DNA of 64,000 nt from a virus: IMG/VR virus record IMGVR_UViG_3300037467_001950. One strand, written 5' to 3'. The notes beneath the pieces were generated by a model. The model was given only the letters and a program-made list of their open reading frames with translations, did not search any database and had not been told where the DNA came from. Each line of letters starts with the position of its first letter. Positions within the stretch are counted from its first letter, which is position 1. The position numbers and the translations under genes were made by a program. Below are positions 6,389-53,650 of the stretch, piece by piece.

Positions 6389-6841
6389 ATGGTGCGGAAG
6401 AACAGCACCGGCCGGGCCTCGATCAAGCGTGCGTTCCGTCAGGAGCAGGCGCTCAAGCTGCGGCTGGCCGGTGCCACCTATACGGCGATCGCCGAGAAGC
6501 TGGGTTGCAGCCGGACTGTGGCCTACCGCGACGTCGCCGACGCCCTGGCTGAACTGAAACGTGAACCGGCGCAAGCGGTTCTTGACATGGAGATGCATCG
6601 GCTCGATCAGATGCTTCTGGGTTTGTGGCGGGACGCGGTGTCGGGCAACACGAAAGCCGTGTCGGCCGCGTTGCGGATCATGGACCGCCGTGCCCGCTAC
6701 CTGGGTCTGGATCAGGCTCCCCCGCCTGATACCAGCCTGGAGGCGCGGGTGGCGCTGGATGAGCTGCAGAAGGCGATCGTGGAGGCCGCCGAGAAGATCA
6801 ACCCCGATCTGGGTTATGGGTCGGCGGGTGCGCTCGGATGA
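6389..6841 (+). CDS. terS: terminase small subunit (HTH)
   Basis: ATG 6389. HTH LAGATYTAIAEKLGCSRTVAYRDVADAL. It lies directly upstream of terL with an ATGA overlap. Confidence 0.65.
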   Translation: MVRKNSTGRASIKRAFRQEQALKLRLAGATYTAIAEKLGCSRTVAYRDVADALAELKREPAQAVLDMEMHRLDQMLLGLWRDAVSGNTKAVSAALRIMDRRARYLGLDQAPPPDTSLEARVALDELQKAIVEAAEKINPDLGYGSAGALG

Positions 6842-11181: not shown

Positions 11182-11254
11182 AGCGGAGTAGAGCAGTCGG
11201 TAGCTCGCTGGGCTCATAATCCAGAGGTCGTGGGTTCGACTCCCACCTCCGCTA
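11182..11254 (+). tRNA. tRNA-Met: tRNA-Met (anticodon CAT; could also be an Ile2 type)
   Basis: Hand-folded cloverleaf: acceptor AGCGGAG/CTCCGCT, D arm GAGC-AGTCGGTA-GCTC, anticodon arm CTGGG-CTCATAA-TCCAG, T arm GTGGG-TTCGACT-CCCAC, discriminator A. No CCA is encoded. Confidence 0.9.
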
Positions 11255-11269
11255 CAAACCTGTTGTGCG

Positions 11270-11946: not shown

Positions 11947-12236
11947 GCCTGGCGCAGTGGTCGTGGGTCACCGCCGCCATCTCGATCGCCGGGGCGTGGT
12001 TTTCCTCCCGCTCCCCGCGACGCGGCTGGATGGCCGGAATAGTGGTGCAGCTGGTGTGGATCATCGCCGGCGTCGCCACCGGGCAGCCCGGCACCATCGC
12101 CCTGTCGATCGTGTTCATCGCCCTGGACTGCTACAGCCTGTGGCGTTGGCGCGGCACCGCCTTCACCCCGTCACACCGCCGCCACAACGGCCAACCCCAC
12201 ACCCCGCCCGTCATCGAGCAGGAGGTGGCGCCGTGA
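11943..12236 (+). CDS. small membrane protein (about 3 TM segments)
   Basis: ATG 11943 (ATGA overlap). Trp-rich hydrophobic sequence. Confidence 0.5.
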   Translation: MSLAQWSWVTAAISIAGAWFSSRSPRRGWMAGIVVQLVWIIAGVATGQPGTIALSIVFIALDCYSLWRWRGTAFTPSHRRHNGQPHTPPVIEQEVAP

Positions 12237-12760
12237 AACCCCGCCACGCCGACACCGACCGCATGAACCGGTTGCGCGCCGGGGTGCTGGGCGCCAACGA
12301 CGGCATCGTGTCGGTGTCGGCGCTGATCATCGGCGTGGCCGCCGCCCACACCGGCCGGTCGGTGCTGCTGACCACCGGACTGGCGGGGCTGATGGCGGGC
12401 GCGGTGTCGATGGCGCTGGGCGAATACGTGTCGGTGGCCACCCAACGCGACGCCGAAGCACCCATGGTCGCCGACGGGCGCATGTTCGCCGACGAGGTGG
12501 CCAACCCGTGGACTGCGGCCGCGTCCTCGGCGGTGTCGTTCACCGCCGGCGCGCTGGTGCCGTTGATCGCGATGTTGATCAGCCCCGTCTCCTGGCGGGT
12601 CCCGGTCACCGTCGCCGCCGTCATCGCCGCCCTGATCGCCACCGGCGCCACCGCGGCCCGGCTCGGCGACACCCCCGCGCTTCGGCCCGTGGTGCGCACC
12701 GTGTGCGGCGGCGCGGCCGCGATGGCCATCACCTACCTCGTCGGCTACCTGACGAACTGA
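12233..12760 (+). CDS. VIT1/CCC1-family (iron/manganese transporter-like) membrane protein
   Basis: GVLGANDGIVSVSALIIGV and MALGEYVSVATQRD are VIT-family signature segments. GTGA overlap with the upstream gene. Confidence 0.7.
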   Translation: MKPRHADTDRMNRLRAGVLGANDGIVSVSALIIGVAAAHTGRSVLLTTGLAGLMAGAVSMALGEYVSVATQRDAEAPMVADGRMFADEVANPWTAAASSAVSFTAGALVPLIAMLISPVSWRVPVTVAAVIAALIATGATAARLGDTPALRPVVRTVCGGAAAMAITYLVGYLTN

Positions 12761-13919: not shown

Positions 13920-15629
13920 ATGCTCGCGCCCAGTGCGAACCTGGCTCTGGTCCCCTCGTTCGGTTTGGCGTCGGTACAGACCGAGCAGCTGCCCGTGGAG
14001 GGCCTGCCGATCGTCGGCGCGTCCTGGCCGCCGAAGCCGTTCGACGTGTCCCAGAAGCAATTCCACATCTGGGACAGCTGGTACGCCGGCGACGTCGCCG
14101 AACTGCAGAACATCTACATCCAGGAGAATATGGTCCGGCCCACCGCGTGGGCCGGTGGCCTGGTCGGCCGCCTGCAGCGGTTCTTCTGGGGTCGGCCGAA
14201 CCTGCAGAACTTCACCCGCATCCATGTCCCGATTGCGGCGGACCTGGCGCGCACCAGCTCCGATCTGTTGTTCGCCGAGCCGCCGACCACCTACATCGCC
14301 GACGGCGACAACGTCTCCAACCCGACCAAGGCGCAAAAGCGCCTCGACCAACTGCTGGGTGGCGACGACACCTACACCACCCTCGGCGCCGGCGGCGAAC
14401 TCGCCTCCGCGCACGGTGGGGTGTTTCTGCGGCTGTGGTGGGACGAGCAGATCGCCGATCACGTCATGCTCGGCGTCAACTCCGCCGATATGGCGGTGCC
14501 GACGTGGCGCTATGACCAGTTGCAGGCGGTGACGTTCTGGAGCGTGGTGGCCTCGGAGGAGGGCACCTGGATTCGGCACCTGGAACGCCACGAACCGGGG
14601 CGCATCCTGCATGGGCTGTATGAAGGCGACCAAGGCAACCTTGGTCGCCGCATCCCGCTGGAGGCCTCCCCCGACACCGCGTGGGCCGCCGACGTGGTCG
14701 ACTCCGAAGGCGCGATCGCCACCGGGGTGCCGTGGCTGACCGCCGCCTACGTGCCCAATCAGCGGCCCAACCGCAAATGGCGGCGCACACCGGGCCTGGC
14801 GCCGTTCGGCCGGTCGGACTTCGACGGTATCGAAATGCTGTTCGACGCCCTCGACGAAGTCGTGTCCTCCTGGATGAGAGACATCGACCTCGGCAAGGCG
14901 AGGTTGTTCGTCGACGAGTCCCTGTTGACCGATCAGGGCCCGGGACAGGGCGCCACGTTCGACGGTGAGCAGGCGATCTTTACGCCATTGCGCGGGACGA
15001 TCGGGTCGATGGCCACCGGCAACAACTCGGGCCTGTTCGCCAATCAGTTCAACATCCGGTGGCAGGAACACAGCCGCACCGTGTCCGAGATTCTGGACAT
15101 GATCTTGCGTGGGGCTGGTATCTCGCCGGGATCGTTCACCGACTCCAGCCTGTCGCCGGCGGTGACCGCCACCGAGGTCAACTCGCGTGACTCGCTGTCG
15201 GAGCGCACTCGCAGCAAGAAGATGTCGTTGTGGCGCAACGGCGTTGGCGCGCTCGCCCGGACGGCCATGAACATCGACGATCAGGTGTTCGGGTCGGGGT
15301 CGGCGATTTCCGATATCCCGGACATCAACTTCCCGCCTCGTTCGATGCAGGCCCCGCTGGAGATGGCGCAGACGATCGCGGCTCTCATGGCGGCGCAGGC
15401 GATTTCGACGCAGCAGGCTGTGGCCGAGCGGCACCCGGAGTGGACCGCCGCCGAGGTGAACGAGGAAGTGCAGCGTATCCGCGCCGACCTGGCAGCGCTG
15501 ACCGATGCGACTGGAGGTGATTCGACGTTGGCGCCGAACACCGAACCGTTGCAGACCCGCAAATACCGTCCGCCGTCGCCGTTCCCGACCCAGTCGAGCA
15601 TCGGTGACATGGCCAACAGCGGCGGATGA
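13920..15629 (+). CDS. portal protein
   Basis: 569 aa, positioned between the packaging genes and the MuF-like gene. It resembles an SPP1 gp6-type portal. Confidence 0.85.
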   Translation: MLAPSANLALVPSFGLASVQTEQLPVEGLPIVGASWPPKPFDVSQKQFHIWDSWYAGDVAELQNIYIQENMVRPTAWAGGLVGRLQRFFWGRPNLQNFTRIHVPIAADLARTSSDLLFAEPPTTYIADGDNVSNPTKAQKRLDQLLGGDDTYTTLGAGGELASAHGGVFLRLWWDEQIADHVMLGVNSADMAVPTWRYDQLQAVTFWSVVASEEGTWIRHLERHEPGRILHGLYEGDQGNLGRRIPLEASPDTAWAADVVDSEGAIATGVPWLTAAYVPNQRPNRKWRRTPGLAPFGRSDFDGIEMLFDALDEVVSSWMRDIDLGKARLFVDESLLTDQGPGQGATFDGEQAIFTPLRGTIGSMATGNNSGLFANQFNIRWQEHSRTVSEILDMILRGAGISPGSFTDSSLSPAVTATEVNSRDSLSERTRSKKMSLWRNGVGALARTAMNIDDQVFGSGSAISDIPDINFPPRSMQAPLEMAQTIAALMAAQAISTQQAVAERHPEWTAAEVNEEVQRIRADLAALTDATGGDSTLAPNTEPLQTRKYRPPSPFPTQSSIGDMANSGG

Positions 15630-17687: not shown

Positions 17688-18602
17688 GTGGCGAATGTCT
17701 TTCTCACCCCGGAGTTGATCGCCCAGCGCGCCCTGGCGAACCTGTACCCGTCGCTGGTCATGGTGCCGCTGGTCTACACCGATGTGAGCTCGCAGTTCTC
17801 GGCTCAGAAGATCGGTAACACGATCAACATCCGCAAGCCCACCACGTTCACCGCCGAGGAGTTCGACGACACCTCCGGCATCACCATCCAGTCCGCCAAC
17901 GAGTCGGCGATCCCGGTCACCCTCGACACCATCGCCGACGTGTCGTTCGCGGTCACCACCGAGCAGCTGACCCTCGACATCGTCAACTTTGACGAGCAGC
18001 TGCTCACGCCGGCCTGCATGGCGTTGGCGGAGAAGGTCGATCAGGACATCCTGTCGCTGCGCTCGAACATCTCCAACACCGTCGGCACCAACTCCGGCTA
18101 CACCTGGGACACCCCCGAGGTGCTGATCGACTCCGGCCGCGTGCTGGATCAGGCCAACCTGCCGTCGTCGGCTCGCCACACCATCATCGGCCCGGCGACC
18201 AAGGCCAAGTGGCTCAACTCGCAGGACCTCAAGTACGTGATGAACGCCGGTACCAACGAGGATCTGCGTGCCGGTTCGCTCGGCGCCAGCCTGTTCGGCT
18301 CCGACATCTTCGTCACCACCAACATCGCCTCGCCCCCGGCCGACACCGCCGCGGGCCTGCCGACCACCGAGGTCGGTGTGATGTTCCACGAGACCGCGTT
18401 CTGCTTCGCCAGCGCTCCGCTGGAGCTGGCGCCGGGTTCGTTCGCGTCGGTGCAGACCTACAACGGTCTGTCGATTCGTGTGGCCTACGCCTACGACATC
18501 AACCACAAGAAGTTCATCTGCTCGCTGGACACCCTGTACGGCGTGAAGACCCTCGACCCCAACCGTGCCTGCCTGTTGCAGGGCGCGCTGACCGTCAGCT
18601 AG
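17688..18602 (+). CDS. major capsid protein
   Basis: 304 aa, downstream of the scaffold gene. The N-terminus MANVFLTPELIAQRAL resembles P22-coat-like/HK97-fold capsids of actinophages. Confidence 0.8.
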   Translation: MANVFLTPELIAQRALANLYPSLVMVPLVYTDVSSQFSAQKIGNTINIRKPTTFTAEEFDDTSGITIQSANESAIPVTLDTIADVSFAVTTEQLTLDIVNFDEQLLTPACMALAEKVDQDILSLRSNISNTVGTNSGYTWDTPEVLIDSGRVLDQANLPSSARHTIIGPATKAKWLNSQDLKYVMNAGTNEDLRAGSLGASLFGSDIFVTTNIASPPADTAAGLPTTEVGVMFHETAFCFASAPLELAPGSFASVQTYNGLSIRVAYAYDINHKKFICSLDTLYGVKTLDPNRACLLQGALTVS

Positions 18603-23564: not shown

Positions 23565-23678
23565 TTCGGGTCTCCCCCGTTGAAGAAATGGCTCTCGTGT
23601 GGTGGCCGAACGGCCACCGACAAAGTGTAGAACCTCCCGCACCCGATCCATAGCCCTCGGCTCTGAATCGGGTGCGTC

Positions 23679-23690
23679 ACAACTGAATAC
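23679..23690 (+). promoter_or_regulatory. start-associated motif copy (ACAACTGAATAC)
   Basis: Lies upstream of the tape measure GTG 23707. Confidence 0.5.
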
Positions 23691-23706
23691 AGGGGCGGTG
23701 AGAACC

Positions 23707-26700
23707 GTGGCAGCTGACTACAGCGCCTACGACGCCGGAACGGCGTATCTCACCATCGAAGCTCGTCTCGACGACGACTTCGAGGCCAAGATCGCTGGTG
23801 CGCTGCAAGGCATCCCAGCCCAGCAGATCGCGGTCACCCCCGACATGGACGGGTTCACCAAAGACCTCGACGACAGCTGGAAAAGCCTCGACCACACCCT
23901 CAGCGTGAAGGTGCAGGCCGACCAGGACGCCCTCGCCGAGTTGGCCAAGCCGATCGAGCTGGTGGCCACCCTCGACACCACCGCCGCGCAGGCCGAACTC
24001 GACCGGTTCCGCGCCGAACTGCCCACGATCACCCTCTACGCCGCCCTCGACACCGCGGGCGCCGAGGCCGATCTGCAGCGGTTGCGCGACGACGCGGCCG
24101 CCGAGCCGGTGACCGTGCGCACCGACACCGACCAGGCGCAAGGTCAGGTCACGCTCGACACCAAGCCCGCCGAGCAGACGCTATCGGAATTCTTTGCACA
24201 AGAGCTGGTTTTCACTGTCCCGCTGGCTTTGGACACCTCCATCGCCGAGGAGCAACTAGCCGAGTTCCGGGCCAAGGCCGCCGAGCCGGTGACGATGAAA
24301 ATCAACGTCACCGAGTCCGGCGGGGGCACCCGGGGCGGCGGCCGGCGCCGCAAGGCCAGCGCCGCCGAAGACGGCCTCGAGGAGCCCACCTACTACCACC
24401 GCGAGCCGGTGGACCTCGACGCCTACATGGCCAGCCGTTCGGCCGCCCAAACCGATCAGGCCCAGGCGGCGCAGCGCATCCTCTACGGCGCCGCGGAGCA
24501 GAATCCGCAGCTGGCCGCCCAAGAGATCATGGGCGCGGCCAGCCAGACCACGCCGCAGGTGGCGCGTCAGATCGTGTCCGGCGCGCAGATGCACGGCGGC
24601 CCGTGGCCGGCGCCGAGTGCGTTCGGGCAGACCGAACGCCCCACCGACTGGTCGCGCTGGAACTTCGGGGAAAACACCGAGCCCGCGTCCATGCCCGGCG
24701 AGGGCCTGGCCAACCTCACCAAGTTCCTGCAGTCGATCGAGAAGGGCGGCATCGGCGGCGGCGCAAAGGGACTGCCGTCGCTGGTCGGCAGCAAGGATTG
24801 GGCAGGGCTGCTGTCCGACGCCGGCATGATGGGCGGCCCCGAAGCCGGGGCCGCGGTGGCGGCGCTGGGTGCGCTCAAGGGTGTGCTGTCGGACCTGGTG
24901 GGCCCGATCACCGACGCGATCAGCGTGCTGACCGAGGTCACGACCGCGTTCATGAAGTTCTCCCTCATGGGCGGGGGCCTGTCGCTGGGCGGTGCCCTGC
25001 TCGGCGATCTGGGTGCGATCGGCATCACCGGCGCGTTCGGGTTGAAGAACGTTCCGGCAGCGCTGCAGGCGGGGACAGCGCTGCGGGAATGGAACCGCGA
25101 CCCCAACGCCCAGTTGCAGCAGCAGTCGGCGGTGCTGTCGGCGCAGATGGGTGTGCGCACCGCCAACGAGGGTGTGCAGTCTTCGATCTGGAACCAAGGC
25201 GATGCCCTGTTCCAGGCCAAGGCGGCCACCGAGCAGTTGACCATGGCCCAGGAATCGGCCGTGCTGAGTCAGCGATCGCTGAACGACGCCTACAAAGAGG
25301 CTGGTCGCAGCGTCCGCGACATGAACGACGCCCTGGAAGACGCCAAGCTCAAGCAGGAGGGCGCGGCGCTGTCGGTGTCGGCGGCCCGGACCCGGTTGCT
25401 GCAAACACAGATGGATCCGTCGGCGTCGCTGCTGGACAAGCAGCTGGCGTTGCACGAATACAACGTCGCCCAGCAGGGCTACAAGGAGTCCAAGAACAAA
25501 ACCGCCGACCAGACTGTCGACACCGCGATCTCCAATCAGCGTGGGGTGCAACAGAATACGCAGGTTTTGCAGGCTGTGCGCGGGATGCAGTCGGCGACGC
25601 TGGGGGTGGAGGAAGCCGCCCACGCCCAGGTCGACGCCCAGCACCAGATCGTGCAAGCCACCTGGGGAATCGAGAACTCCCTCACGCAGGTGGCGTTGGC
25701 GGCCAACCAGATGAAGATCGCGCTCAACCCGGAGCCGGTGGATCAGTATCACCTTGCGCTGGACAAGCTTTCGCCTTCGGCGCGGGACTTCGTCGAGCAG
25801 ATGCAGGCGATGTACCCGGAGTTGAAGAAGGTCCAGAACGCGATCAGCGATCAGCTGTTCGACCACCTGGCCGATTCGATCCGCAAGTTCCTCAACGACC
25901 AGGGCATCTCCATCACCTCGGCCATGACCGGGATCGCGCACGCCATCAACGGCGGGCTGAAAGACACCCTGCAAGGGCTCGACGACCTGTTCACCAAGCT
26001 GCAGCGTGACGGCACCTGGGACAAGTTCGTCACCGGCGCGGAGAACCTGGCAAAGGGCATGGCCCCCATCATCACCGGGCTGACCGATTTGTTCATCCAG
26101 CTCGGCGCGAAAACGTCCGGCTCCGTCGGCCCGCTGATGACCCAGATCGGGCAGAGCCTGCAAACGCTGGCCCCGGCCCTGGGTGATCTGGCGAACGCGT
26201 TCGCCAAGGGGCTCACCGACGCCCTACCCAGCCTGACGACGATGATCCAGAAGCTCGCCGAGGCCGCGGTGCCGGTGATGCCCGAAATCTCGCACCTGTT
26301 CCAGGTTTTCGCCAACATCCTCTCCGACATCGGCCCCGACCTGGGTCAGATGGTGGGGGCGCTGCTCTCGGACGTGGCCTCGTTCCTGGAGGGCCTGGAG
26401 AAGTCGGGCGGGCTCAAGCAGCTCGTCGACCAGATGCGCGACATGTTCCACCAGATCGGCCCGCTGATGGGCCCTTTGGGCGAGATGGTCGGGCACCTGC
26501 TGCCGGCGCTGTTCGACGTCATCACCCTCGGGATTCCGTGGCTGATGAAGATGGCCCCGGAGTTCGAGAAGTGGTTCCACGAGGCGCAACCGCTGGTGGA
26601 GGCGGCCGGGCACCTGGCCGACCTGCTGCCCGCCATCATGGGCGCGATCGACGATCTGTCTCACCCGTTGCAGTCGATCACCGACCTGTTCAGCGACTGG

Positions 26701-29133
26701 ACCGGCTGGGTGGAACGGATCGTCGATGGGCTCGGGAAGATCGCCGACCACATGGGCAACCTGGGCGGCATCCTCGGCGGCTCCAGTGGCGACAACTCCG
26801 GCGGCGGCGGGTGGGGTTCGAAGATCGGGAAGTTCTTCAACCCGCTCAGCTTCGTACCCACCCGCGCCCAGGGCGGCCCCATCGCCGGAGAAGGGTCCTC
26901 GATATCGGACTCGATTCCGGCGATGCTGTCCGACGGCGAGTACGTGATCAACGCCCGCGCCGCGGCCGCCCACCGGCCGCTGCTGGACGCGATCAACGGC
27001 TACGCGTTGGGCGGGATCGTCAAGGGCGTCGCCTACGCCAACGACATCCGCGGCGGCCACTTCGGGCGCCTGTTCCGGCGCGTGGTCGAGCACAACGTGC
27101 TCCACTTCGCCTCCGGCGGCCCCGTCAACGCCCGCGACTGGGGTGCCGGCCACCCGAACATCCCCTACATCGAGGGCGGCACCGCCGCCGACGGTGTGGA
27201 CTGCTCCGGCTATGTGGGTCTGCTGCAGCAGATTTCGATGGGTGTGGCCAATCCGACCGCGCGCCTGGGTGTGACCGGGGACGTGGTCGGCGGGACGTGG
27301 CCGCAGTTCGTGAGCGGCGCCGACCCGAGCGATGCGTTCATCATCGGCGCCAACGCCGAGCACATGGCCGCGGCGATCCTGGGCACCAACTTCGAGGCCC
27401 GCCAGCCCGGTGAGAACGTGCGCATCGGCGGCAACGCCGCCTCCCCGTTCGATGGCCAGTTCACTACGGTCGGCCACGTCGACCCGAACGCGTTCCAGCC
27501 CGCCTACGACGCCACCGGCAACTCCGGTGGGCAGGATCCGTCCACCGCGGGCGGGGACACCGACGCGTTGGCGAACGAAACGATGCTGCCGCAGAAGGCG
27601 CCCACCCGGTTCTCCGAGTGGGCGGGCAACACCACCACCAACGTCATCACCTCCCTGCTGAACTACGGCACACCGACCCCGCCCATGGACGGGTCGGTGG
27701 TGCCGATGCAGGGGTTCCAGGACGCGTTCGACGCGATCATCAAGACCGCGCCGAGCAAGCGGCAGCACGACCAGGCCGCCACGTTCCTGCTGGGTGTGCC
27801 GTTGCCGGACCAGAACGCGCCCGGCGCGGGAACGCCGAGCGCGACACCGCCGGCGCCCAACGCCGATGCCTCCACCGGAGGATCGGCGGGGGTGTCGACA
27901 CCCGACAATCCGGACGCGGGCACCAAGGACGCCCCCGACATGCTGGGCACCGACAAGCTGGCCGGCGGTGAGGGTGTCGGTGGTGTGCTCGGCGCCCTCG
28001 AGGTCGGGGCCGGTGGGTTCGCCAAGGCCGCAGGCGAGTTCGTGTCCGGTCAGATCAGTTCCGCGCTCAACGTGCTGGGTGGCGGGTCGGAGCTGGACAC
28101 GGTGCCGGGGTGGATGCAGGCCGCCTACCAGGTGTGGGCGGCGGAGCAGACCAAACCGAAGGACAGCAAGAAGCGCGACACGGTCATCGGGAAGGACTAC
28201 AACGCGCCGAAGGCCTCGACGTCGGGTTCGACGCCTGGGTCGATTCCGAGGGTCGGTGGTGGGACGCCGTCGATTCCGCGGACCGCGAACACGCCGTCGC
28301 GGACCAACCCGGACCGGGGCAGCCCGAACGAGTTGAACGAGATGGCCACCGACAACTCCGGCGCCAGCAGCTCTGGTGGCGGGGACCAGCTCAACAAGAT
28401 GGCCGGGCAGGGCACCGCGGCCGGTGGGCTGCCGCCGCTGATCACCTACACCCCCGGCGGTGGTGTGTCGCAGTGGACTTCGACGTTCGCGGCGGTGCTG
28501 TCGTCGCTGGGGATGCCCTCGTCGTGGCTGTCGCTGGGCATGGCGCAAATGGAGACCGAGGACGCCAGCGGTGATCCGTACGCGATCAACAACTGGGACT
28601 CCAACGCCGCCAAGGGAACCCCGTCCAAGGGTCTGATGCAGGTCATCGACCCGACGTTCAACTCGATGTACCCGAAGTTCTCCTCCCTGGGCTACCCGGC
28701 CAACATCTACGACCCGCGGTCGAATATCGCCGCGGGCCTGGAGTGGGAGGTCTACAAGCGCGGCACGCCGGTCGGTGACTGGGGCCAAGGTCACGGCTAT
28801 GCCACCGGCGGTGACGTGTCCGGGGATGGGTCCTCGATCGGGGACGTGATTCCGGCGTTGCTGTCGGACGGGGAGTTCGTGGTCAACGCCCGCTCCGCTG
28901 ACGCCAACCGCTCGCTGCTGCACGCGATCAACGCTGACGCGGGCGCGGTGTCTCGGCTGGCGCTCAAGCAGATGATCCCGACCAAGGGATTGGTGGGAGT
29001 CGGTGCCGGGCGTGGCGGGGTCGACCAGTCGGCGACCTACAACATCCACGCTCACGACGTGGAGCAGGGCTTCCGCAAGGCGGCGCTGTACCACCAGCAG
29101 CGCGCGGCGACCTACACCAGCCGTTGGCGCTGA
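23707..29133 (+). CDS. tape measure protein with embedded NlpC/P60-like and lytic transglycosylase-like motifs
   Basis: 1808 aa. GVDCSGYVGLLQQ lies at about 27190-27230. MAQMETEDASGDPYAINNWDSNAAKGTPSKGLMQVIDPTF lies at about 28530-28660. An internal duplicated segment GSSI.D.IPA.LSDGE.V.NA..A...R.LL.AIN lies at about 26890-27000 and 28830-28935. Confidence 0.9.
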   Translation: MAADYSAYDAGTAYLTIEARLDDDFEAKIAGALQGIPAQQIAVTPDMDGFTKDLDDSWKSLDHTLSVKVQADQDALAELAKPIELVATLDTTAAQAELDRFRAELPTITLYAALDTAGAEADLQRLRDDAAAEPVTVRTDTDQAQGQVTLDTKPAEQTLSEFFAQELVFTVPLALDTSIAEEQLAEFRAKAAEPVTMKINVTESGGGTRGGGRRRKASAAEDGLEEPTYYHREPVDLDAYMASRSAAQTDQAQAAQRILYGAAEQNPQLAAQEIMGAASQTTPQVARQIVSGAQMHGGPWPAPSAFGQTERPTDWSRWNFGENTEPASMPGEGLANLTKFLQSIEKGGIGGGAKGLPSLVGSKDWAGLLSDAGMMGGPEAGAAVAALGALKGVLSDLVGPITDAISVLTEVTTAFMKFSLMGGGLSLGGALLGDLGAIGITGAFGLKNVPAALQAGTALREWNRDPNAQLQQQSAVLSAQMGVRTANEGVQSSIWNQGDALFQAKAATEQLTMAQESAVLSQRSLNDAYKEAGRSVRDMNDALEDAKLKQEGAALSVSAARTRLLQTQMDPSASLLDKQLALHEYNVAQQGYKESKNKTADQTVDTAISNQRGVQQNTQVLQAVRGMQSATLGVEEAAHAQVDAQHQIVQATWGIENSLTQVALAANQMKIALNPEPVDQYHLALDKLSPSARDFVEQMQAMYPELKKVQNAISDQLFDHLADSIRKFLNDQGISITSAMTGIAHAINGGLKDTLQGLDDLFTKLQRDGTWDKFVTGAENLAKGMAPIITGLTDLFIQLGAKTSGSVGPLMTQIGQSLQTLAPALGDLANAFAKGLTDALPSLTTMIQKLAEAAVPVMPEISHLFQVFANILSDIGPDLGQMVGALLSDVASFLEGLEKSGGLKQLVDQMRDMFHQIGPLMGPLGEMVGHLLPALFDVITLGIPWLMKMAPEFEKWFHEAQPLVEAAGHLADLLPAIMGAIDDLSHPLQSITDLFSDWTGWVERIVDGLGKIADHMGNLGGILGGSSGDNSGGGGWGSKIGKFFNPLSFVPTRAQGGPIAGEGSSISDSIPAMLSDGEYVINARAAAAHRPLLDAINGYALGGIVKGVAYANDIRGGHFGRLFRRVVEHNVLHFASGGPVNARDWGAGHPNIPYIEGGTAADGVDCSGYVGLLQQISMGVANPTARLGVTGDVVGGTWPQFVSGADPSDAFIIGANAEHMAAAILGTNFEARQPGENVRIGGNAASPFDGQFTTVGHVDPNAFQPAYDATGNSGGQDPSTAGGDTDALANETMLPQKAPTRFSEWAGNTTTNVITSLLNYGTPTPPMDGSVVPMQGFQDAFDAIIKTAPSKRQHDQAATFLLGVPLPDQNAPGAGTPSATPPAPNADASTGGSAGVSTPDNPDAGTKDAPDMLGTDKLAGGEGVGGVLGALEVGAGGFAKAAGEFVSGQISSALNVLGGGSELDTVPGWMQAAYQVWAAEQTKPKDSKKRDTVIGKDYNAPKASTSGSTPGSIPRVGGGTPSIPRTANTPSRTNPDRGSPNELNEMATDNSGASSSGGGDQLNKMAGQGTAAGGLPPLITYTPGGGVSQWTSTFAAVLSSLGMPSSWLSLGMAQMETEDASGDPYAINNWDSNAAKGTPSKGLMQVIDPTFNSMYPKFSSLGYPANIYDPRSNIAAGLEWEVYKRGTPVGDWGQGHGYATGGDVSGDGSSIGDVIPALLSDGEFVVNARSADANRSLLHAINADAGAVSRLALKQMIPTKGLVGVGAGRGGVDQSATYNIHAHDVEQGFRKAALYHQQRAATYTSRWR

Positions 29134-44941: not shown

Positions 44942-45997
44942 TCAGGCGGGTGAAGCCGCCAAACCCGAGCCTGCCAGGCCCCGCCAACTCGTGCGCAGCC
45001 GGTCCCTCGTCGCCGCCGACGCCGCCTGCCCCGCCGGGGTCAACGCCGCCAACCGATCCGCCACCGGCGGCGGCACCGGCGTCACCGGCGCAGCCGGAGC
45101 CTCCCGTGGGCGCACAGCCCGGCCCACCCGCACCGGATACGAACCCCGCGCCGCCGCCGTCGACATCCACCCCCGCCACGCCGCGTCCGGATCAGCCCAC
45201 CGGTTGCCGTGGGAGATGTTGTAGTTCACGAACGCCCGCGTCGCCTGCCCCACGTCCACACCCGGGCACTCACGCAACGCCCACGACACCAACGCCGCCG
45301 ACGGCCGGTAGTCGGCCGCGATCGGAACCCGCACCCGCGCACCCGAATCCCCGCCATCATCTCCGGTCCGGAAAATCCCTTTAGTTTTCTCTTTCAAGAC
45401 TTTTAAAGGGGACCGCGAAACCGCAGGTAGACCGGGGTCCGATACGGTATCCGATACCCTATCGACCCCCACCTCCGATAGGGTATCGACCGCCTGTGAC
45501 ACGACCGGTTCAGCGGCGACGCTTACCGACCCCGAACCGCTTCCCGGGACGACGTTTCCCACGAGCTCGGCCACCGCGGGGTGGGCCCACCCGGCCGGAT
45601 TCAATGCCACCAGACGCCGCAGCACCGCCACCGCCAGGGCCCGCAACCGGCCCGACAGAATCGCCGAGATCGCCCGCGCTACAGCGGGCCGCAGTTTTGG
45701 GGAGCGCACCGCACCCCCCTTCTCGATGCGGTCCACCAACCACAACTCGCCGGTGTCGGCGTCGAGCACCACCATGTCGCGGGCGGCCAGCTCGTCGACG
45801 GCCGCGCGCACCGTGTCCGCGGTCCAACCGCGCGTCCAGCCCGCCACATGCTCGGGATTCCACGCCACCACCCCGGCGTGAGTCAGTTCCGTGGTGCGTT
45901 CCAGCATCATCGCCAGCAGGGTGGCGTCCGGCGATAGCCCGTCGTACCAATCGGGGGTGTAGATGCTGATCGTCGGCAGCGTGACATGTCCAGCCAA
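44942..45997 (-). CDS. putative replication initiator/organiser (function uncertain)
   Basis: TTG 45997 follows GGAAGGAGA. 351 aa: two folded-looking halves joined by a low-complexity linker whose DNA carries the ori-like patch. Confidence 0.5.
   Translation of the reverse strand: MAGHVTLPTISIYTPDWYDGLSPDATLLAMMLERTTELTHAGVVAWNPEHVAGWTRGWTADTVRAAVDELAARDMVVLDADTGELWLVDRIEKGGAVRSPKLRPAVARAISAILSGRLRALAVAVLRRLVALNPAGWAHPAVAELVGNVVPGSGSGSVSVAAEPVVSQAVDTLSEVGVDRVSDTVSDPGLPAVSRSPLKVLKEKTKGIFRTGDDGGDSGARVRVPIAADYRPSAALVSWALRECPGVDVGQATRAFVNYNISHGNRWADPDAAWRGWMSTAAARGSYPVRVGRAVRPREAPAAPVTPVPPPVADRLAALTPAGQAASAATRDRLRTSWRGLAGSGLAASPA
45372..45492. other. candidate origin of replication inside the 44942-45997 gene
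   Basis: AT-rich island GAAAATCCCTTTAGTTTTCTCTTTCAAGACTTTTAAAGG (45372-45410) followed by CCGATA / TATCG iterons: CCGATACGGTATCCGATACCCTATCGAC...CCGATAGGGTATCGAC (45439-45492). Confidence 0.4.
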
Positions 45998-46020
45998 CGT
46001 CGTCTCCTTCCAACAGGGGT

Positions 46021-46308
46021 TCAGCTCACGAGGCGACGAGCGGCCAAACCCAGCTCGTCGCGGATTCGGGCCGTCGTGGCCAAGGTCATGCGGGTATGGG
46101 CCGCGATCCGGGAGTCGGACCACCCGGCCTCCCACAGCTGGCGCACCAGCATGTGCCGGTCGCGGCGGGTCAACGCATCAGCCGGGGTGTCCCCAGCCAA
46201 CGCCGAGGCGTACGGGCCCGGCTCGTCCGGTCCGCCGGCCGGAACCGGGGGCGGGGACCACCAGGTGCGCCGCCCCGCAGAGTCGCGGCGCACCTGGGCC
46301 TCACCCAT
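46021..46308 (-). CDS. HTH DNA-binding protein
   Basis: Reverse ATG 46308. The C-terminal RRDRHMLVRQLWEAGWSDSRIAAHTRMTLATTARIRDELG is a sigma-70 region 4 / LuxR-like HTH. Confidence 0.55.
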   Translation of the reverse strand: MGEAQVRRDSAGRRTWWSPPPVPAGGPDEPGPYASALAGDTPADALTRRDRHMLVRQLWEAGWSDSRIAAHTRMTLATTARIRDELGLAARRLVS

Positions 46309-48952: not shown

Positions 48953-49025
48953 TGCGGTACGGGGGGCTTTCTCTATATCCGGTCAGCCTCCGCTCGATCC
49001 ACCTCCCGGCGGGAAGACCGGGGTG

Positions 49026-49056
49026 TTGTGACAGGGCCAACACTGGGTAACAATAT
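49026..49056 (+). promoter_or_regulatory. promoter candidate for the XRE/ImmA operon
   Basis: TTGTGACA...GGGTAACAATATAGG. The -10 region resembles the GGTATGTAATATAG promoters elsewhere in the window. Confidence 0.35.
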
Positions 49057-49228
49057 AGGCTATCTCAAGCTAACACAACACCGAACCATCAACCATCGGT
49101 AGAACCGGCTGTCACCAGGGTAGACCCGCTGTACACTCCGGATCACCGACGACACAGCAGGCACCGCGCCGACCCCGTGGATCCACCACGGGGGCCCGGC
49201 CGTGGGCCGGCGGATAGGCTGCCCCACG

Positions 49229-49618
49229 ATGACCCCCGAAGGTATCGACCTCGCCACGACCCAGAAGATCGGCGAACTGCTCAAAGCCGCACGCGAAGCG
49301 AAGTCGTTGTCCCGGCCCGACCTGGGCGTGCTCGCCGACCTGTCGCGCAACCGGCTCCAGCAGATCGAGCAGGGCTACATCATCCGTGCCGGCGAGACTG
49401 TGAAACGGCCCACTCAACTCAAGCGCGACCAGCTCCTCGCGGTGTGCGACGCACTGGAGATGCCGCCGGAAATTGTTGACCGTATTCTGACCTTGTCCGG
49501 CTATAAGCCACTGGATCGCAGCAGGGAAATCGTATATTTACACGGGCTCTCGGAATCCGAGCGCAACCGGCTGCAGGCACAGGCGGAGAAATACCGGGCC
49601 AACCGGAAGAAGAAATAG
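49229..49618 (+). CDS. XRE-family repressor candidate
   Basis: ATG 49229 (GTG 49202 is possible). QKIGELLKAAREAKSLSRPDLGVLADLSRNRLQQIEQG is a Cro/C1 HTH. Confidence 0.75.
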   Translation: MTPEGIDLATTQKIGELLKAAREAKSLSRPDLGVLADLSRNRLQQIEQGYIIRAGETVKRPTQLKRDQLLAVCDALEMPPEIVDRILTLSGYKPLDRSREIVYLHGLSESERNRLQAQAEKYRANRKKK

Positions 49619-49650
49619 CAGTAGAACTCGGACAAGGTGGTGCGCATTCG

Positions 49651-50232
49651 ATGTCGACGGCCAGCGATCCGGGGTCCACGGGGGCCCTTCGTACCTACGA
49701 CGCCTACGCCGACGCCGAAGCCCTCGGAATCGAGGTCGGGTTCGAGCCGCTGCCCGCCGGCGTGACCGGGGTGCTGCTGCGTGAGCAGTCGGTGGTGTTG
49801 ATCGAAGAAACGCTCGACGAATGTGCCCGCCACGACGAGCTGGCCCATCAGCTCACCCACTGGCGCCACCGGCCCCGGCCGGGCGAAGCCGACCCGCGCC
49901 GGATCGAGGAGGCGGTGCGCCGTGAGACCGCGCGCCGATTGATCCCGCTGCCGACCCTGGCCACCGCCATCGCCACCATCATCGCCACCGACAACGTCAT
50001 CGAACCGGACCCGGCGCTGGTGGCCAACCTGCTGGGGTCCTCGCTGAACACCCTCTACGACCGGCTGCTGTCGATTACGCCCACCGAAATCGGGGGCGCT
50101 CCGGCCGCGGTGCTTCTCGGACTCCTCAAGGTCCAGCCCGCACCGGGCCACACCCACCGCTGCATCCAGGACACCGCGCCGAACGCGGGATGGATGGACC
50201 GGGTACGCGGAATCTTTTCCCGCACAGACTGA
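49651..50232 (+). CDS. ImmA/IrrE-like metallopeptidase
   Basis: The HExxH motif lies within CARHDELAHQLTHW. It is directly downstream of an XRE repressor, as in ImmR/ImmA modules. Confidence 0.6.
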   Translation: MSTASDPGSTGALRTYDAYADAEALGIEVGFEPLPAGVTGVLLREQSVVLIEETLDECARHDELAHQLTHWRHRPRPGEADPRRIEEAVRRETARRLIPLPTLATAIATIIATDNVIEPDPALVANLLGSSLNTLYDRLLSITPTEIGGAPAAVLLGLLKVQPAPGHTHRCIQDTAPNAGWMDRVRGIFSRTD

Positions 50233-50418
50233 TTCGGGTAGCGACAGCGCCCCGACGCGGCGGAACGAATCGAGGCGCTGTCTACCACACACACCCCCGC
50301 CCATAGGCTGGAAGTGGTGAGCCCAGCATAGCGCGCGGCGCCGACACCCCACCCGCCAAGTCTGTATTGGTACAGACCGTGTGCCGTGGACCACTCCCGT
50401 TTCGATAGAGCGAAATCA

Positions 50419-50436
50419 GTACGTGGTATGTAACAC
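50419..50436 (+). promoter_or_regulatory. GTACGTGGTATGTAACAC box upstream of parA
   Basis: The first 15 of its 18 nt match the spacer/-10 of the promoter at 54449-54466. It lies 39 nt upstream of the parA ATG. Confidence 0.4.
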
Positions 50437-50474
50437 TGGGGCCACACACACACTCCACGTTCTGAGGACGCTTC

Positions 50475-51224
50475 ATGAGCAAAACCGAAATCCCCGAAAC
50501 CCTCGAATGGCCTGACTGCCTTGTCATCTCGTTCGGGAACCTGAAAGGTGGCCCCGGAAAGACCACCGCCGCCTTCTTCCTGGCAACCTTCTTCGGCGGT
50601 GAGCTGGGCAAGAAGACCCTGCTCATCGACGCCGACCCGCTGAGCCAGACCGCCTACAGCTGGTACCGCAAGCTCAAAAAGCTGGAAGACACCACGGTCC
50701 CGTTCGACCTGATCCCGTTCCCGTCTCCACAGCTGGGCAACTGCATCGCCGACTACGCGCCGAAGTACGACGTGATCCTGGTCGATGTCGGCGGCGAGTC
50801 CGACGCGATCTTCAAGGCCGCCGTCACCGAATCCGACATCCTGGTCATGCTCGCCACCGCCCAACCGGCGGACGTGAACCGCATCGCCTCGACGTTCGCC
50901 GCCGCCGAGGAGGCTGCGGCCCGCGCCGACAAAACCATTGATGTCTACGTGCTGATGACCAAGATCAAGGAGTTCAAGCGCGACGGCAAGAACGTCTCCA
51001 AGGAGTACTGGGGCCAGCGCCGCAAGCTCGAGGACGCCGACTTCACCGTGCTGGACCGCTACGCCAGCGATTGGAAGTGGTACCGGCAGGCCACCGATGG
51101 CGACCTGGACGGGGGGGTCGCCAACCCCCTGGATAGCGTCGGAGAGTTCAAAGACATCGGCTTCGAGATCCTGACCCGGTTCGCCGACTTCCAGCGTGAG
51201 ATGGCCGAGGAGGCGACCGCCTGA
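50475..51224 (+). CDS. parA: ParA partition ATPase
   Basis: Deviant Walker A GNLKGGPGKTT, then LLIDADP and VILVDVGG. Confidence 0.9.
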   Translation: MSKTEIPETLEWPDCLVISFGNLKGGPGKTTAAFFLATFFGGELGKKTLLIDADPLSQTAYSWYRKLKKLEDTTVPFDLIPFPSPQLGNCIADYAPKYDVILVDVGGESDAIFKAAVTESDILVMLATAQPADVNRIASTFAAAEEAAARADKTIDVYVLMTKIKEFKRDGKNVSKEYWGQRRKLEDADFTVLDRYASDWKWYRQATDGDLDGGVANPLDSVGEFKDIGFEILTRFADFQREMAEEATA

Positions 51225-52366
51225 TGCCCCCGAAGGAACGTAAGCCCCGCCGGCTCGGGGGCAACCAGGCGGCTGCACCCAACCCGCTGACCGACGGCAG
51301 CAACACCCCGGCGGTGTCGCCGCTGGCGAACGCGGCATGGACGCCCGGCATGAAACCGGTAGGCGTCGAGGATCCCTACGCGGGTGGTAACACTGTTACC
51401 ACCACACCGGAAACAGCCCCCGCTGGTAACAGTGTTACCACCTCGCCGATCGCCACCCCGAGTGGTAACACTGTTACCACCTCGGCCAACGGCAACGGTT
51501 CGACCCCGAATGGTGGTAACACTGTTACCAGCCCGCCGACTGGTAACAGTGTTACCAGCTCGCCGGTCGCCCCGATCGGCGAGTTTGCGCACCGGCCGCG
51601 CAACGCCCGCCAGGACTACGAATACGACGTGACCGCCGATCCGGAGCTGGCGTCCCTGTCGGGCAGCATCGCCACCTACGGTCTGCTGCAGGCGGTCACG
51701 GTGTGTTCACGCGACGCGTGGTTGCACCACAACCCGGGCGACGGCGCCAAGATCGGCGATGCGCCGTGGGTGGTGCTCATGGGTAACCGGCGTCTCGCCG
51801 CGGCCCGCGCGGCCGGACTCACCGAGCTGCCCTACTTTCGAGCCGATGCCCTGGCCGACCCGAACCGAGTGCTGGAAGCGGGCATCAGCGAGAACTACCA
51901 CCGCAAGGACACTGACCCCATCCTGGAGGCGGTCGAGTTCCACCGGGCCCTCACGGCGAACAACGAGTCGCGGCGCCAGCTCGCGGCGCGGTTGCGGGTC
52001 AGCCATGTCCACATCGGCAATCGGCTCAACCTGCTGAACCTGATCGCGCCGTTCCAGACGCTCGTGTCCCGGGGTGTCGTGGCGCCGAGCAAGGCTCTGC
52101 CGATCGCGGCGCTGGAGGACAAGGAACAAGAGAGGCTGCTCGAACTCGGCGAGCCCTACAACCCGACCCGACTGCATCGGCCTGTCCCGACTCCGGTGAG
52201 TGGTAACACTGTTACCACCCGCAAGGCGTTGCACATCCCGAAGGCGGTCCCCGCGGGGATCGTCGCGGCGAAGCTGCGCGACAGCATGGACCCGGAGATG
52301 CTGGACGAGGTCGTGAAGCTGCTCACCGATCCGAGTGGTAACAGTGTTACCACCGCGGCGGAATGA
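51224..52366 (+). CDS. parB: ParB partition protein with GN(T/S)VT(T/S) peptide repeats
   Basis: The ParB N-terminal domain box reads LLQAVTV...VVLMGNRRLAAARAAGLTELP. An HTH region follows. ATGA overlap with parA. Confidence 0.85.
   Translation: MPPKERKPRRLGGNQAAAPNPLTDGSNTPAVSPLANAAWTPGMKPVGVEDPYAGGNTVTTTPETAPAGNSVTTSPIATPSGNTVTTSANGNGSTPNGGNTVTSPPTGNSVTSSPVAPIGEFAHRPRNARQDYEYDVTADPELASLSGSIATYGLLQAVTVCSRDAWLHHNPGDGAKIGDAPWVVLMGNRRLAAARAAGLTELPYFRADALADPNRVLEAGISENYHRKDTDPILEAVEFHRALTANNESRRQLAARLRVSHVHIGNRLNLLNLIAPFQTLVSRGVVAPSKALPIAALEDKEQERLLELGEPYNPTRLHRPVPTPVSGNTVTTRKALHIPKAVPAGIVAAKLRDSMDPEMLDEVVKLLTDPSGNSVTTAAE
51385..51557. promoter_or_regulatory. parS-like cluster 1: five copies of TGGTAACA(C/G)TGTTACCA inside the parB 5' region
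   Basis: Copies at 51385-51401, 51424-51440, 51463-51479, 51514-51530 and 51541-51557. Confidence 0.75.
52201..52352. promoter_or_regulatory. parS-like cluster 2: two copies inside the parB 3' region
   Basis: Copies at 52201-52217 and 52336-52352. Confidence 0.7.
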
Positions 52367-52548
52367 GGGAAGCCGTGGCTCACTTCAACTTCCTCACCGG
52401 CCAAGGTATCGACATCCGGATGGAGATCAGGGACAAGCGCGAGGATGTGGAGACGACTGCGCGTATCGACTTCACTCTGGAAGAGGCTGAGGCCTTGCAC
52501 CGGGCGTTGGGTGACAGCATCCGCCAGGTGCGGGCGCATCGTCCCTGA
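52363..52548 (+). CDS. hypothetical protein
   Basis: ATG 52363 (ATGA overlap with the parB stop). 61 aa. Confidence 0.4.
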   Translation: MREAVAHFNFLTGQGIDIRMEIRDKREDVETTARIDFTLEEAEALHRALGDSIRQVRAHRP

Positions 52549-52555
52549 TGTCGGC

Positions 52556-52688
52556 TGGTAACACTGTTACCACCGCGGCCGACTGAGACGCCGGGCCGAC
52601 GAGTGGTAACAGTGCTTCCATCTCCACTCAGCTGGTAACAGTGTTACCACCAGGCGACACAACCGATCAACTGGTAACAGTGTTACCA
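52556..52688. promoter_or_regulatory. parS-like cluster 3: four copies downstream of parB
   Basis: Copies at 52556-52572, 52604-52620 (degenerate), 52633-52649 and 52672-52688. Confidence 0.7.
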
Positions 52689-52744
52689 CCCAACGGAAAA
52701 CGCCCCGTCTGCATCAGCAGGCGGGGCGTTTCGCTGTCCGGGGG

Positions 52745-53431
52745 TCAGGGCCGGTGGGTGGCGACGTAGTCGCGCACGGCCTTGGCGGAGTAGATGTGGT
52801 TGGCGCCGATGGTCCCGATCGGTTGGGGCGCCGTGGGGTCGTTGCGGGTCATCGTCGCCCAGGTGCCTTGGGAGACGCCGGCAGCTTCGGCACACATGCG
52901 GGTGGTCCACCGGCTGGGCGGAAGGGTAGCCTCCACTTCCTCGGTGGTGGGGCGGAAGCGGTTGCCGGGGCCGGGCCGGTGGGCGATCCAGTCCACGACG
53001 GCCTCGGGTTCCCAGTAGCGCCACATCTTGTATTCCGGCGGCACCCGCGGGTCGTGGGTGGTGTCGATCGGGTCGGGCGCCGGGTTGGTCATGGTCTTGA
53101 CGCGCACCGCCTCCCACCATGCGGAGCGGGAGATGCCGGCGGCGTCGGCGCACTGCTGGGCGTGCCAGAGCCCTTCCACGGGCGCGGTTTCCACACCGCC
53201 ACCGCGGCCGGGCCGGTTGGCGGCCCAGCGGATGACCTCGGCGGCCTTCCATTTGCGTCGGGGTCGTCCACCGAGGGCGGAGGGGAACAGTTGGGGGACG
53301 GGGTCGGGGGCGGGGTTGTTCTTGGTCTTGGAGGAGACGGCGCGCCGCCACGCTTCGACGGTCATGGGCCGTCCGGAGACGTCGGCGATGAGTCCGACGC
53401 ACTCCTCAGCGGTGACTAGTACGGGGTCCAT
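52745..53431 (-). CDS. DNA-binding protein with three tandem excisionase/MerR-like HTH repeats
   Basis: Reverse ATG 53431. There are three internal repeats of about 70 aa (for example AEECVGLIADVSGRPMTVEAWRRAV.. / AQQCADAAGISRSAWWEAVRV.. / TRMCAEAAGVSQGTWATMTRN..). Each ends in W..RPG or a similar sequence. Confidence 0.65.
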   Translation of the reverse strand: MDPVLVTAEECVGLIADVSGRPMTVEAWRRAVSSKTKNNPAPDPVPQLFPSALGGRPRRKWKAAEVIRWAANRPGRGGGVETAPVEGLWHAQQCADAAGISRSAWWEAVRVKTMTNPAPDPIDTTHDPRVPPEYKMWRYWEPEAVVDWIAHRPGPGNRFRPTTEEVEATLPPSRWTTRMCAEAAGVSQGTWATMTRNDPTAPQPIGTIGANHIYSAKAVRDYVATHRP

Positions 53432-53438
53432 CCCACCA

Positions 53439-53467
53439 TTGTTACATACCTTGTCCAGGACACTCAG
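53439..53467 (-). promoter_or_regulatory. possible leaderless promoter for the 53431 gene
   Basis: The reverse strand reads AAGGTATGTAACAATGGTGGGATG. The -10-like TAACAA ends 7 nt before the ATG. Confidence 0.3.
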
Positions 53468-53560
53468 CAACAGAGCCGGACAAATCGACAACGGCGTTTA
53501 CCGATCATCGTTGCAGCTCAGATGGGGTGTTACGGCATGGTGCCGACGCTGTGGAGTTCA

Positions 53561-53589
53561 TTGTAAACACCTGAGACCGAACGTAACAT
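53561..53589 (+). promoter_or_regulatory. SigA-like promoter (TTGTAA-17-TAACAT)
   Basis: TTGTAAACACCTGAGACCGAACGTAACAT, about 110 nt upstream of ATG 53700. Confidence 0.45.
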
Positions 53590-53650
53590 AGACAGTGATG
53601 GCGAAGCGCCGTCGACCTGGGTACGATCCAGGTCACATCTTTTCCGGGTT

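Follow-up and report, generated by a model that had tools for sequence, protein, structure and literature searches.

The par locus described here lies in a 64-kb stretch of DNA (64,000 nucleotides, hereafter called the window) from the IMG/VR virus record IMGVR_UViG_3300037467_001950, a siphovirus-type actinobacterial phage genome with about 67% G+C. It consists of the genes parA and parB and eleven copies of a 17-bp palindrome, seven of which are within the reading frame of parB. The gene parA (50475..51224, + strand) encodes a deviant Walker-A ATPase of 249 amino acids with the motif KGGPGKT, which matches Pfam AAA_31 (1.1e-11; 45.5 bits, cutoff 27), also CbiA and MipZ, and the ParA-like family PHROG 164 (1.6e-25). 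The gene parB (51224..52366, + strand) encodes a helix-turn-helix (HTH) ParB of 380 amino acids, and its ATG overlaps the stop codon of parA as TGATG. The protein is composed of a basic N-terminal peptide, a tail (residues 1-111), a core with the motifs GNRR and ENYHRKD, the HTH, a linker and a C-terminal helical domain, and it matches HTH_ParB (PF17762) with an E-value of 3.8e-7 (30.6 bits against a cutoff of 22.6). Its family profile matches the Caulobacter ParB structures 6T1F/7BM8 and B. subtilis Spo0J (6SDK), and because the profile alignment runs through GNRR (GERR in the Caulobacter and B. subtilis proteins) and ENYHRKD (ENLQRxDL there), the window ParB appears to be a divergent member of the cytidine triphosphatase (CTPase)-type HTH ParBs. 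Moreover, the basic N-terminal peptide is conserved (MPPKERKPRR in the window ParB, MPAPxRPKR in relatives), which together with the overlap of the parA stop and the parB start indicates that the tail is translated.

A pattern search of the window found ten perfect copies of the palindrome TGGTAACA(C/G)TGTTACCA and one copy with two mismatches. These eleven matches to TGGTAACASTGTTACCA span 51385-52688 and occur nowhere else in the window, and no additional copies appeared when three mismatches were tolerated, while dinucleotide shuffles of the window gave a mean of 0.00-0.01 matches by chance. Likewise, the 8-mer half-site occurs 21 times within 51380-52700 and never outside, against about 0.28 occurrences expected per strand. 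The eleven palindromes in three groups of five, two and four, as described in an earlier sequence-only reading of this DNA, were therefore borne out by the pattern search and the shuffles. In the 5' part of parB, copies 1 (51385..51401), 2 (51424..51440), 3 (51463..51479), 4 (51514..51530) and 5 (51541..51557) are translated as GNTVTT, GNSVTT, GNTVTT, GNTVTS and GNSVTS at residues 55, 68, 81, 98 and 107 of the N-terminal tail, respectively. In the 3' part, copy 6 (52201..52217) is translated as GNTVTT at residue 327, in the linker that joins the HTH to the C-terminal domain, and copy 7 (52336..52352) as GNSVTT at residue 372, in the extreme C-terminal tail. The downstream cluster comprises the non-coding copies 8 (52556..52572), 10 (52633..52649) and 11 (52672..52688) and the degenerate copy 9 (52604..52620; TGGTAACAGTGCTTCCA, two mismatches). 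Canonical chromosomal parS sites are palindromes of even length (16 bp). An exact scan of IMG/VR for the palindrome returned 19 contigs with one site each and no array, which we take as the chance level.

All seven in-gene copies have one frame offset and are read as G-N-(T/S)-V-T-(T/S); the peptide quoted in the sequence-only reading matches the translation. The phage seldom uses the site codons ACT (2.6%), AGT (2.6%) and GTT (4.8%). Of the two alternative frames of the site, one is interrupted by TAA and the other would require GTA and TTA codons, of which TTA accounts for 0 of 516 Leu codons in ten window genes. Since these two frames are barred by TAA or by TTA/GTA, the shared frame of the seven copies seems to be partly, and perhaps largely, forced and is not independent evidence of selection. 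The alternation of T and S in the peptide follows the unconstrained centre base. In the best-scoring AlphaFold model of ParB, which was built on an 8-sequence alignment, residues 1-111, 320-333 and 368-380 have a predicted local distance difference test (pLDDT) score below 50 and no secondary structure, and all seven in-gene sites fall within these three segments. The low scores are suggestive of disorder in the tail, the linker and the C-terminal end, and the low-pLDDT tail agrees with an alignment in which the ParBs of related plasmids of the Nocardia type (see below) are without a tail segment of 60-70 residues. The peptide repeat thus looks like a tolerated by-product, in which the requirement on the DNA overrides codon preference.

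A close relative, the ENA farmland contig L024, whose ParB is 87% identical to the window ParB, keeps ten sites at orthologous places, namely five in the tail, one in the linker and four downstream. Comparison of the window with L024 shows 1 change in 160 palindrome-arm positions and 116 changes in 1077 positions elsewhere (Fisher p = 1.6e-6); for the parB tail alone the counts are 0 in 80 and 22 in 121 (p = 9e-6). Copy 1 is conserved, copies 4 and 5 are found by the pattern search and in the comparison with L024, copy 9 has the identical degenerate sequence, and copy 11 has one mismatch in L024. The centre base is flipped in 2 of the 10 sites (copies 2 and 3), which swaps T and S. The claim that the peptide repeat is dictated by the DNA sites is supported by the rare codons, by the same sequence in the non-coding region downstream, by conserved arms against diverged spacers and by the T/S choice that follows the centre base. 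The earlier reading held that its claim would fail if a relative had lost the in-frame copies and kept the same tail; L024 keeps the in-frame copies in its tail, and the claim thus withstands this check.

The 3' end of parB differs between the two genomes. Copy 7 is absent from L024. In the window, copy 7 with its 15-bp 3' flank, TGGTAACAGTGTTACCACCGCGGCGGAATGA, nearly duplicates copy 8 with its flank, TGGTAACACTGTTACCACCGCGGCCGACTGA (52336-52572), and a 61-amino-acid open reading frame (ORF; 52363..52548, + strand), which overlaps the parB stop codon as ATGA, sits between the two copies. This ORF has no family match and is missing in L024, and it is probably an insertion between two site copies. 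In the corresponding stretch of L024 (7090-7215), ParB ends with ...GGAAACGGGGCCGACTGA, read as D-G-N-G-A-D-stop, which looks like the unit of copy 7 plus flank after a 12-bp deletion. We infer that the C-terminal tail G-N-S-V-T-T-A-A-E of the window ParB in effect arises by translation of a centromere copy and of its flank as far as the first stop codon. The duplication and the end of the L024 gene together suggest turnover by recombination or indels at the centromere copies.

The closest relatives of the window ParB outside the phage lineage are encoded by par loci of Nocardia and Kutzneria plasmids (for example N. farcinica pNF2, NC_006363). Eleven distinct loci of this Nocardia type were collected from such plasmids and from metagenomes. 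Scans of genome contigs and metagenome contigs with the ParB alignment contributed only 4 and 1 loci, respectively. The ParBs of the eleven loci are 44-49% identical to the window ParB and 59-94% to one another. They share with the window the 8+1+8 palindrome and the in-gene linker position and frame; however, all 11 loci carry a different palindrome, TGGAAAGA(C/G)TCTTTCCA, with the arm GGAAAGA where the window has GGTAACA, and only 2-4 copies are present, once at the homologous parB linker (read as G-K-(T/S)-L-S-T) and 1-3 times upstream of parA, where the full copies lie about 20-50 bp before the parA start. In addition, their ParBs carry no tail array, the N-terminal region being about 60-70 residues shorter than in the window ParB. 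The linker position of copy 6, common to these plasmids, would accordingly be the ancestral one.

At this linker site the codons GGA AAG A(C/G)T CTT TCC are identical in 11 of 11 loci, the codon before it always ends with T and the codon after it begins with A, so that the frozen stretch is exactly 17 bp, and the positions just beyond it vary freely. Among codons for invariant residues, a single codon is used at 4 of 4 positions wholly within the site, against 18 of 99 elsewhere. The constraint at the in-gene site of these loci therefore acts on the DNA. These data bear on the explanation that selection acts on the protein, where G-N-(T/S)-V-T-(T/S) would be a functional peptide motif, and that the DNA is palindromic by coincidence. 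The motif does recur seven times, and its linker copy corresponds to the conserved G-K-(T/S)-L-S-T of the relatives. However, the same 17 bp stand four times in non-coding DNA of the window and also upstream of parA in the relatives, synonymous positions are frozen and the codons in use are rare, the constraint runs exactly from the last base of the preceding codon to the first base of the following one, the T/S swaps between orthologous copies track the centre base, and the Nocardia-type ParBs do without the tail segment altogether. We consider protein-level selection highly improbable.

A third variant of the site, TGGATAGA(C/G)TCTATCCA, is present in three copies right after parB in the locus L036, whose ParB is 36% identical to the window ParB. 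Read in the frame usual for the parB family, this variant would contain a TAG stop. In agreement with this, L036 lacks a copy inside parB; its linker encodes S-D-P-L-S-T at the homologous place, where CTG TCC AC resembles a decayed right half-site. Among the three site classes, bases 4, 5 and 7 vary together with their mirror counterparts at 14, 13 and 11, which leaves the dyad symmetry intact. The recognition helix of the HTH also differs among the three classes and is conserved within each, being S-H-V-(H/Y)-(I/V)-G-N-R-L in the phage class (S-H-V-H-I-G-N-R-L in the window ParB), S-H-(S/T)-Q-(V/I)-N-Q-R-(L/I) in the Nocardia class and S-H-G-Q-V-W-Q-R-L in L036. By this comparison, the reading of the palindromes as cognate parS sites of the adjacent ParB is strongly supported.

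The same comparison bears on whether the palindromes could be iterons of a replication origin, or sites of another DNA-binding protein such as the product of the gene at 52745-53491. A replication-initiator homologue (44942-46135, - strand) lies about 5 kb upstream of the par locus and the DNA-binding protein gene directly downstream; moreover, origins inside genes are known, and parS-dependent copy-number effects have been described in actinophages (PMC7157519). However, parA and parB are the only genes that co-occur with the palindromes across at least 15 related loci; among the Nocardia-type loci, too, the flanking genes vary and parA and parB alone are common to all. The site sequence covaries with the ParB recognition helix, and homologous sites on the plasmid SCP1 were mapped to ParB by chromatin immunoprecipitation sequencing (ChIP-seq) and biolayer interferometry (BLI) (PMC13245405). 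It is hardly credible, in our view, that the sites belong to an origin or to another protein.

SCP1, a linear plasmid of Streptomyces coelicolor, provides the homologous system. According to the ChIP-seq and BLI experiments, each of its proteins ParB1 and ParB2 binds a set of three identical inverted repeats of odd length located around its own operon (Nucleic Acids Research (NAR), 2026; PMC13245405). One repeat is internal to each of parB1 and parB2, and synonymous recoding was needed for complementation (PMC13245405). Although their CTPase motifs are divergent, both proteins act as sliding clamps that depend on CTP (PMC13245405). A ParB2-like protein of an SCP1-like plasmid of S. anthocyanicus is 29% identical to the window ParB over 200 amino acids (BLASTP, E = 6e-15); its own internal site, parS2, is located in the low-complexity linker that follows the HTH. 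The parS1 oligonucleotide matched no PLSDB record, and the homology comparison is based on this ParB2-like protein. Like the window system, the ParB of which is a predicted CTPase, parABS1 and parABS2 are actinobacterial systems of the HTH-ParB CTPase type with odd-length inverted repeats around one central base, and both have a copy in the post-HTH linker of parB (52201, residue 327, in the window). The differences are that SCP1 has three sites per system, one of them internal, and the window eleven, seven of them internal; that the window has in addition the five-copy in-frame array of the N-terminal tail and a copy at the C-terminal end; that the site sequences are ATTACGGCGTAAT and ATTATCACGGCGTGATAAT against TGGTAACASTGTTACCA; and that the carrier of the window locus is a phage genome. 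The earlier proposal that the palindromes are parS-like sites of the adjacent ParB thus gains support from two sides, from the covariation of site and protein among the relatives and from the homologous SCP1 system.

Taken together, the eleven palindromes are very probably the centromere (parS) of a ParABS system, with a short Walker-type ParA and a CTPase-type HTH ParB, in a temperate actinobacterial siphovirus, which in all likelihood is maintained as a low-copy plasmid prophage; the context for this lifestyle is the replication-initiator homologue together with the Xre-type repressor and M78 protease genes beside parA. If the window ParB works like its homologues, chromosomal ParB and SCP1 ParB1/ParB2, its dimers would recognise the two 8-bp arms via the recognition helix S-H-V-H-I-G-N-R-L, close as CTP-dependent clamps and slide off the site. 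Repeated loading at 10-11 close sites would build a partition complex over the 1.3-kb par locus, and ParA, stimulated by the basic N-terminal peptide MPPKERKPRR of ParB, would move this complex. With regard to evolution, we assume that the ancestral layout was that of the Nocardia-type plasmids, with operator copies upstream of parA and one copy in the parB linker, and that in the phage lineage the site specificity changed, copies multiplied in the tail and downstream, and the upstream copy decayed.

Several points weigh against this interpretation. The pairing of ParB and site was demonstrated by experiment for SCP1 and is predicted from sequence comparison for the window. The Pfam ParB_N domain (PF02195) scores 16.4 bits in the window ParB, below the cutoff of 26.3, from which the CTPase domain appears divergent, and the AlphaFold model is weak overall, with a mean pLDDT of 60.8. 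The site counts cover the 64-kb window, and the source contig is about 99 kb, so further sites elsewhere are possible. Furthermore, a tyrosine-recombinase-like ORF (1677-2870, + strand; Pfam Phage_integrase 2.1e-5, below threshold; PHROG integrase 7e-8) would be compatible with integration of the phage; its product may be an integrase or, in a plasmid prophage, a resolvase of multimers similar to Cre/Xer.

Whether the in-gene array acts chiefly in regulation has to be weighed beside partition. As a roadblock or a silencer, ParB bound to or clamped on the five sites about 160-330 bp into parB would then feed back on the expression of parB (and parA), and the downstream cluster would be the true centromere. 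The upstream sites of the Nocardia-type loci have an operator-like position. In the window, the stretch at 50425..50441, about 42 bp before the parA start, matches the palindrome at 12 of 17 positions with the core GTAACACTG intact, and it could possibly, on a weak match, be a decayed operator copy where those loci have a full palindrome. Since the regions upstream of parA in the window and in the Nocardia-type loci could not be aligned, the argument for this relic consists of its position and the 12/17 match. As the phage has only this relic upstream of parA, autoregulation, if kept, would act from the in-gene copies or by spreading. In the mycobacteriophage RedRock, parS-L and parS-R are arrays of eight direct 8-bp repeats flanking the genes, and ParB autoregulates, with repression through parS-L (PMC7157519). 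Specialisation of parS copies is documented in repABC replicons (PMC9040568). On the other hand, a scan of 49000-53600 detected no sigma-70-type promoter, and the in-gene and downstream copies are identical in sequence, so that their roles are not separable by sequence. We regard a mainly regulatory array as possible, though rather unlikely; such a role adds to the partition function rather than excluding it.

A related thought is that the array acts at the RNA level: the 5' part of the parB mRNA would form hairpins and long helices between sites, which tune its translation or stability. The predicted folding energy of the RNA of 51360-51590 is -124.8 kcal/mol, and shuffled sequences reach -77.5 +/- 5.3 (z = -9); in Caulobacter, a regulatory structure of the mRNA is reported at the start of the parB coding sequence (PMC13371061). 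However, so strong a fold is an automatic consequence of repeated palindromes, and an RNA stem requires neither identical copies, nor copies before the promoter region of the relatives, nor arms that track the ParB recognition helix; no known RNA family of Rfam matches the par locus. Action at the RNA level as the reason for the array is thus quite unlikely, and the stable helices of the tail mRNA could still affect parB translation, as reported for Caulobacter parB (PMC13371061).

Sites of the same architecture extend beyond these loci. Further actinobacterial plasmid ParBs, 31-40% identical to the window ParB, are accompanied by 8+1+8 palindromes with other arms. In Saccharothrix, TGGCAACG-S-CGTTGCCA occurs in five copies, one of them in the C-terminal tail of ParA and one in the ParB linker, both read as G-N-G-V-A; in Pseudonocardia alni, TGTAAACGACGTTTACA is found in the ParA tail and downstream of parB; a Streptomyces plasmid locus has CAAAACCCGGTTTTG with one copy in the ParB linker; and another Pseudonocardia plasmid has intergenic copies only. 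The copies in the C-terminal tail of ParA are read as GNGVA (Saccharothrix) and VNDVY (Pseudonocardia). In every in-gene case examined, namely all in-gene sites of the window, L037 (2270 and 3052), L038 (2302), L041 (3163) and L042 (2515), and including the SCP1 parS2-like site, the dyad centre is on codon position 2, a phase in which both strands are read symmetrically, with the pairs G-T, N-V, K-L and G-S. With 3-4 independent placements, this is suggestive at most of a general rule of placement. A more far-reaching proposal would make the five-copy array a selected, self-referential control element, in which ParB clamps in the first third of their own gene and stable mRNA helices set the ParB:ParA ratio, disordered linkers would serve generally as a "parking space" for the DNA-binding sites of mobile elements, and sites would obey the rule that the dyad centre is on codon position 2 and that specificity changes creating a stop are vetoed. 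L036, with its TAG-containing variant and lost in-gene copy, fits the veto; the proposal as a whole is in our opinion doubtful.

Centromere sites within genes are not new in themselves. In this respect the sequence-only reading, which had called the arrangement unusual, has to be corrected, because internal parS sites are already known in parB1 and parB2 of SCP1, in B. subtilis parB and in repABC replicons, and recur in the actinobacterial plasmid relatives. In B. subtilis, parS-359 lies within parB/spo0J (PMC4442127), and in the repABC replicons of Rhizobiales parS sites lie within ORFs and at the 5' end of repB (PMC9040568). Like the window copies, these are centromere sites within the gene of their binding protein; unlike them, they are single sites without a peptide repeat. 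RedRock, of cluster A, resembles the window in that a partition cassette replaces or accompanies integration in a temperate actinobacteriophage; however, the window has 17-bp palindromes, seven of them in-gene, and no array upstream of parA. The RedRock ParB also appears to be unrelated to that of the window. A tblastn search of 50,697 phage records with the window ParB found no actinophage ParB; it gave four weak matches, in three cyanophage records and one unannotated fecal phage contig, with 31-35% identity over 35-46% of the query, and in a megablast search with the par locus no GenBank phage was matched. The sopC centromere of the F plasmid has many closely spaced short inverted repeats beside a parB-type gene, which form one centromere. 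It resembles the window in the clustering of repeats; unlike the window sites, the 43-bp tandem units of sopC lie downstream of sopB in non-coding DNA, and none is translated. In the literature searched, the coverage of which is incomplete, we found neither such an array nor the Nocardia-type sites described. New here are the seven in-gene copies, five of them in an in-frame array that gives the N-terminal tail its peptide repeat, the phage as a carrier for a ParB clade of plasmid type, and a comparative series with a specificity switch and a stop-codon veto. The window locus is an extreme version of the internal-parS arrangement of SCP1 and no new principle.

As for the surroundings, the par operon and the gene at 52745-53491 converge on a G+C-rich hairpin (52698..52732; RNA fold -36.4 kcal/mol, z = -6), a putative terminator for both directions that went uncalled in a simple terminator scan. 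This convergent gene (- strand, 248 amino acids) lies directly after the centromere cluster and has an orthologue at the same place in L024; residues 191-246 of its product match PHROG 597 (DNA binding protein, 3.7e-11), and the Trp-rich motif of this segment occurs about three times along the protein, as counted by eye. A 177-amino-acid ORF on the opposite strand (51059-51592, -), which reads GN(S/T)VT, was rejected as a gene; it is antisense to parA/parB and the mirror image of the palindromes. Such antisense repeats arise since palindromes translate symmetrically on both strands, and they could mislead a gene caller. Immediately upstream of parA lie a gene for an Xre-type HTH protein and a gene for an M78/IrrE-type protease, which look like an immunity pair. 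Two further inverted repeats lie between the M78 gene and parA: the hairpin-like GACAGCGCC...GGCGCTGTC (50240-50283), directly after the M78 gene, and GTCTGTA-ttgg-TACAGAC (50360-50377), a possible operator for a different regulator.

The phage genome further contains genes for the terminase (6838-8121), the portal (13920-15629, about 52% identical to portals of Gordonia phages), the major capsid protein (17688-18602) and the tape measure protein (23599-29133). A tRNA-Met (11182-11255, +) and a VIT1-family gene (iron/manganese transporter-like; 11957-12760, +) lie between the terminase and portal genes and are unusual cargo there. In addition, a Ro60 homologue (59513-61174, +; TROVE 4.5e-39, Ro60 vWA 3.6e-56) is followed by a gene of the inositol-monophosphatase family (60976-62172), and Rfam at the gathering threshold found no Y-RNA-like RNA in the whole window.

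The locus carries a warning for annotation: a low-complexity peptide repeat in the tail of a ParB can be the shadow of sites in the DNA. For actinobacterial genetics it offers a compact partition cassette of 2.3 kb with a new specificity, and the three closely related pairs of site and recognition helix would be suitable for studying how ParB specificity evolves. Because transcription and translation must cross 5-7 ParB loading sites, the interplay of clamps and RNA polymerase would be directly testable here. The locus is a clean natural example of a single DNA stretch under two codes, and it leaves a readable evolutionary trail, which would lead from a single in-gene site, by a mirror-symmetric switch of specificity, to expansion into a disordered tail, and further to a non-coding site captured as a new C-terminus and to an in-gene copy lost where the new site spells a stop.

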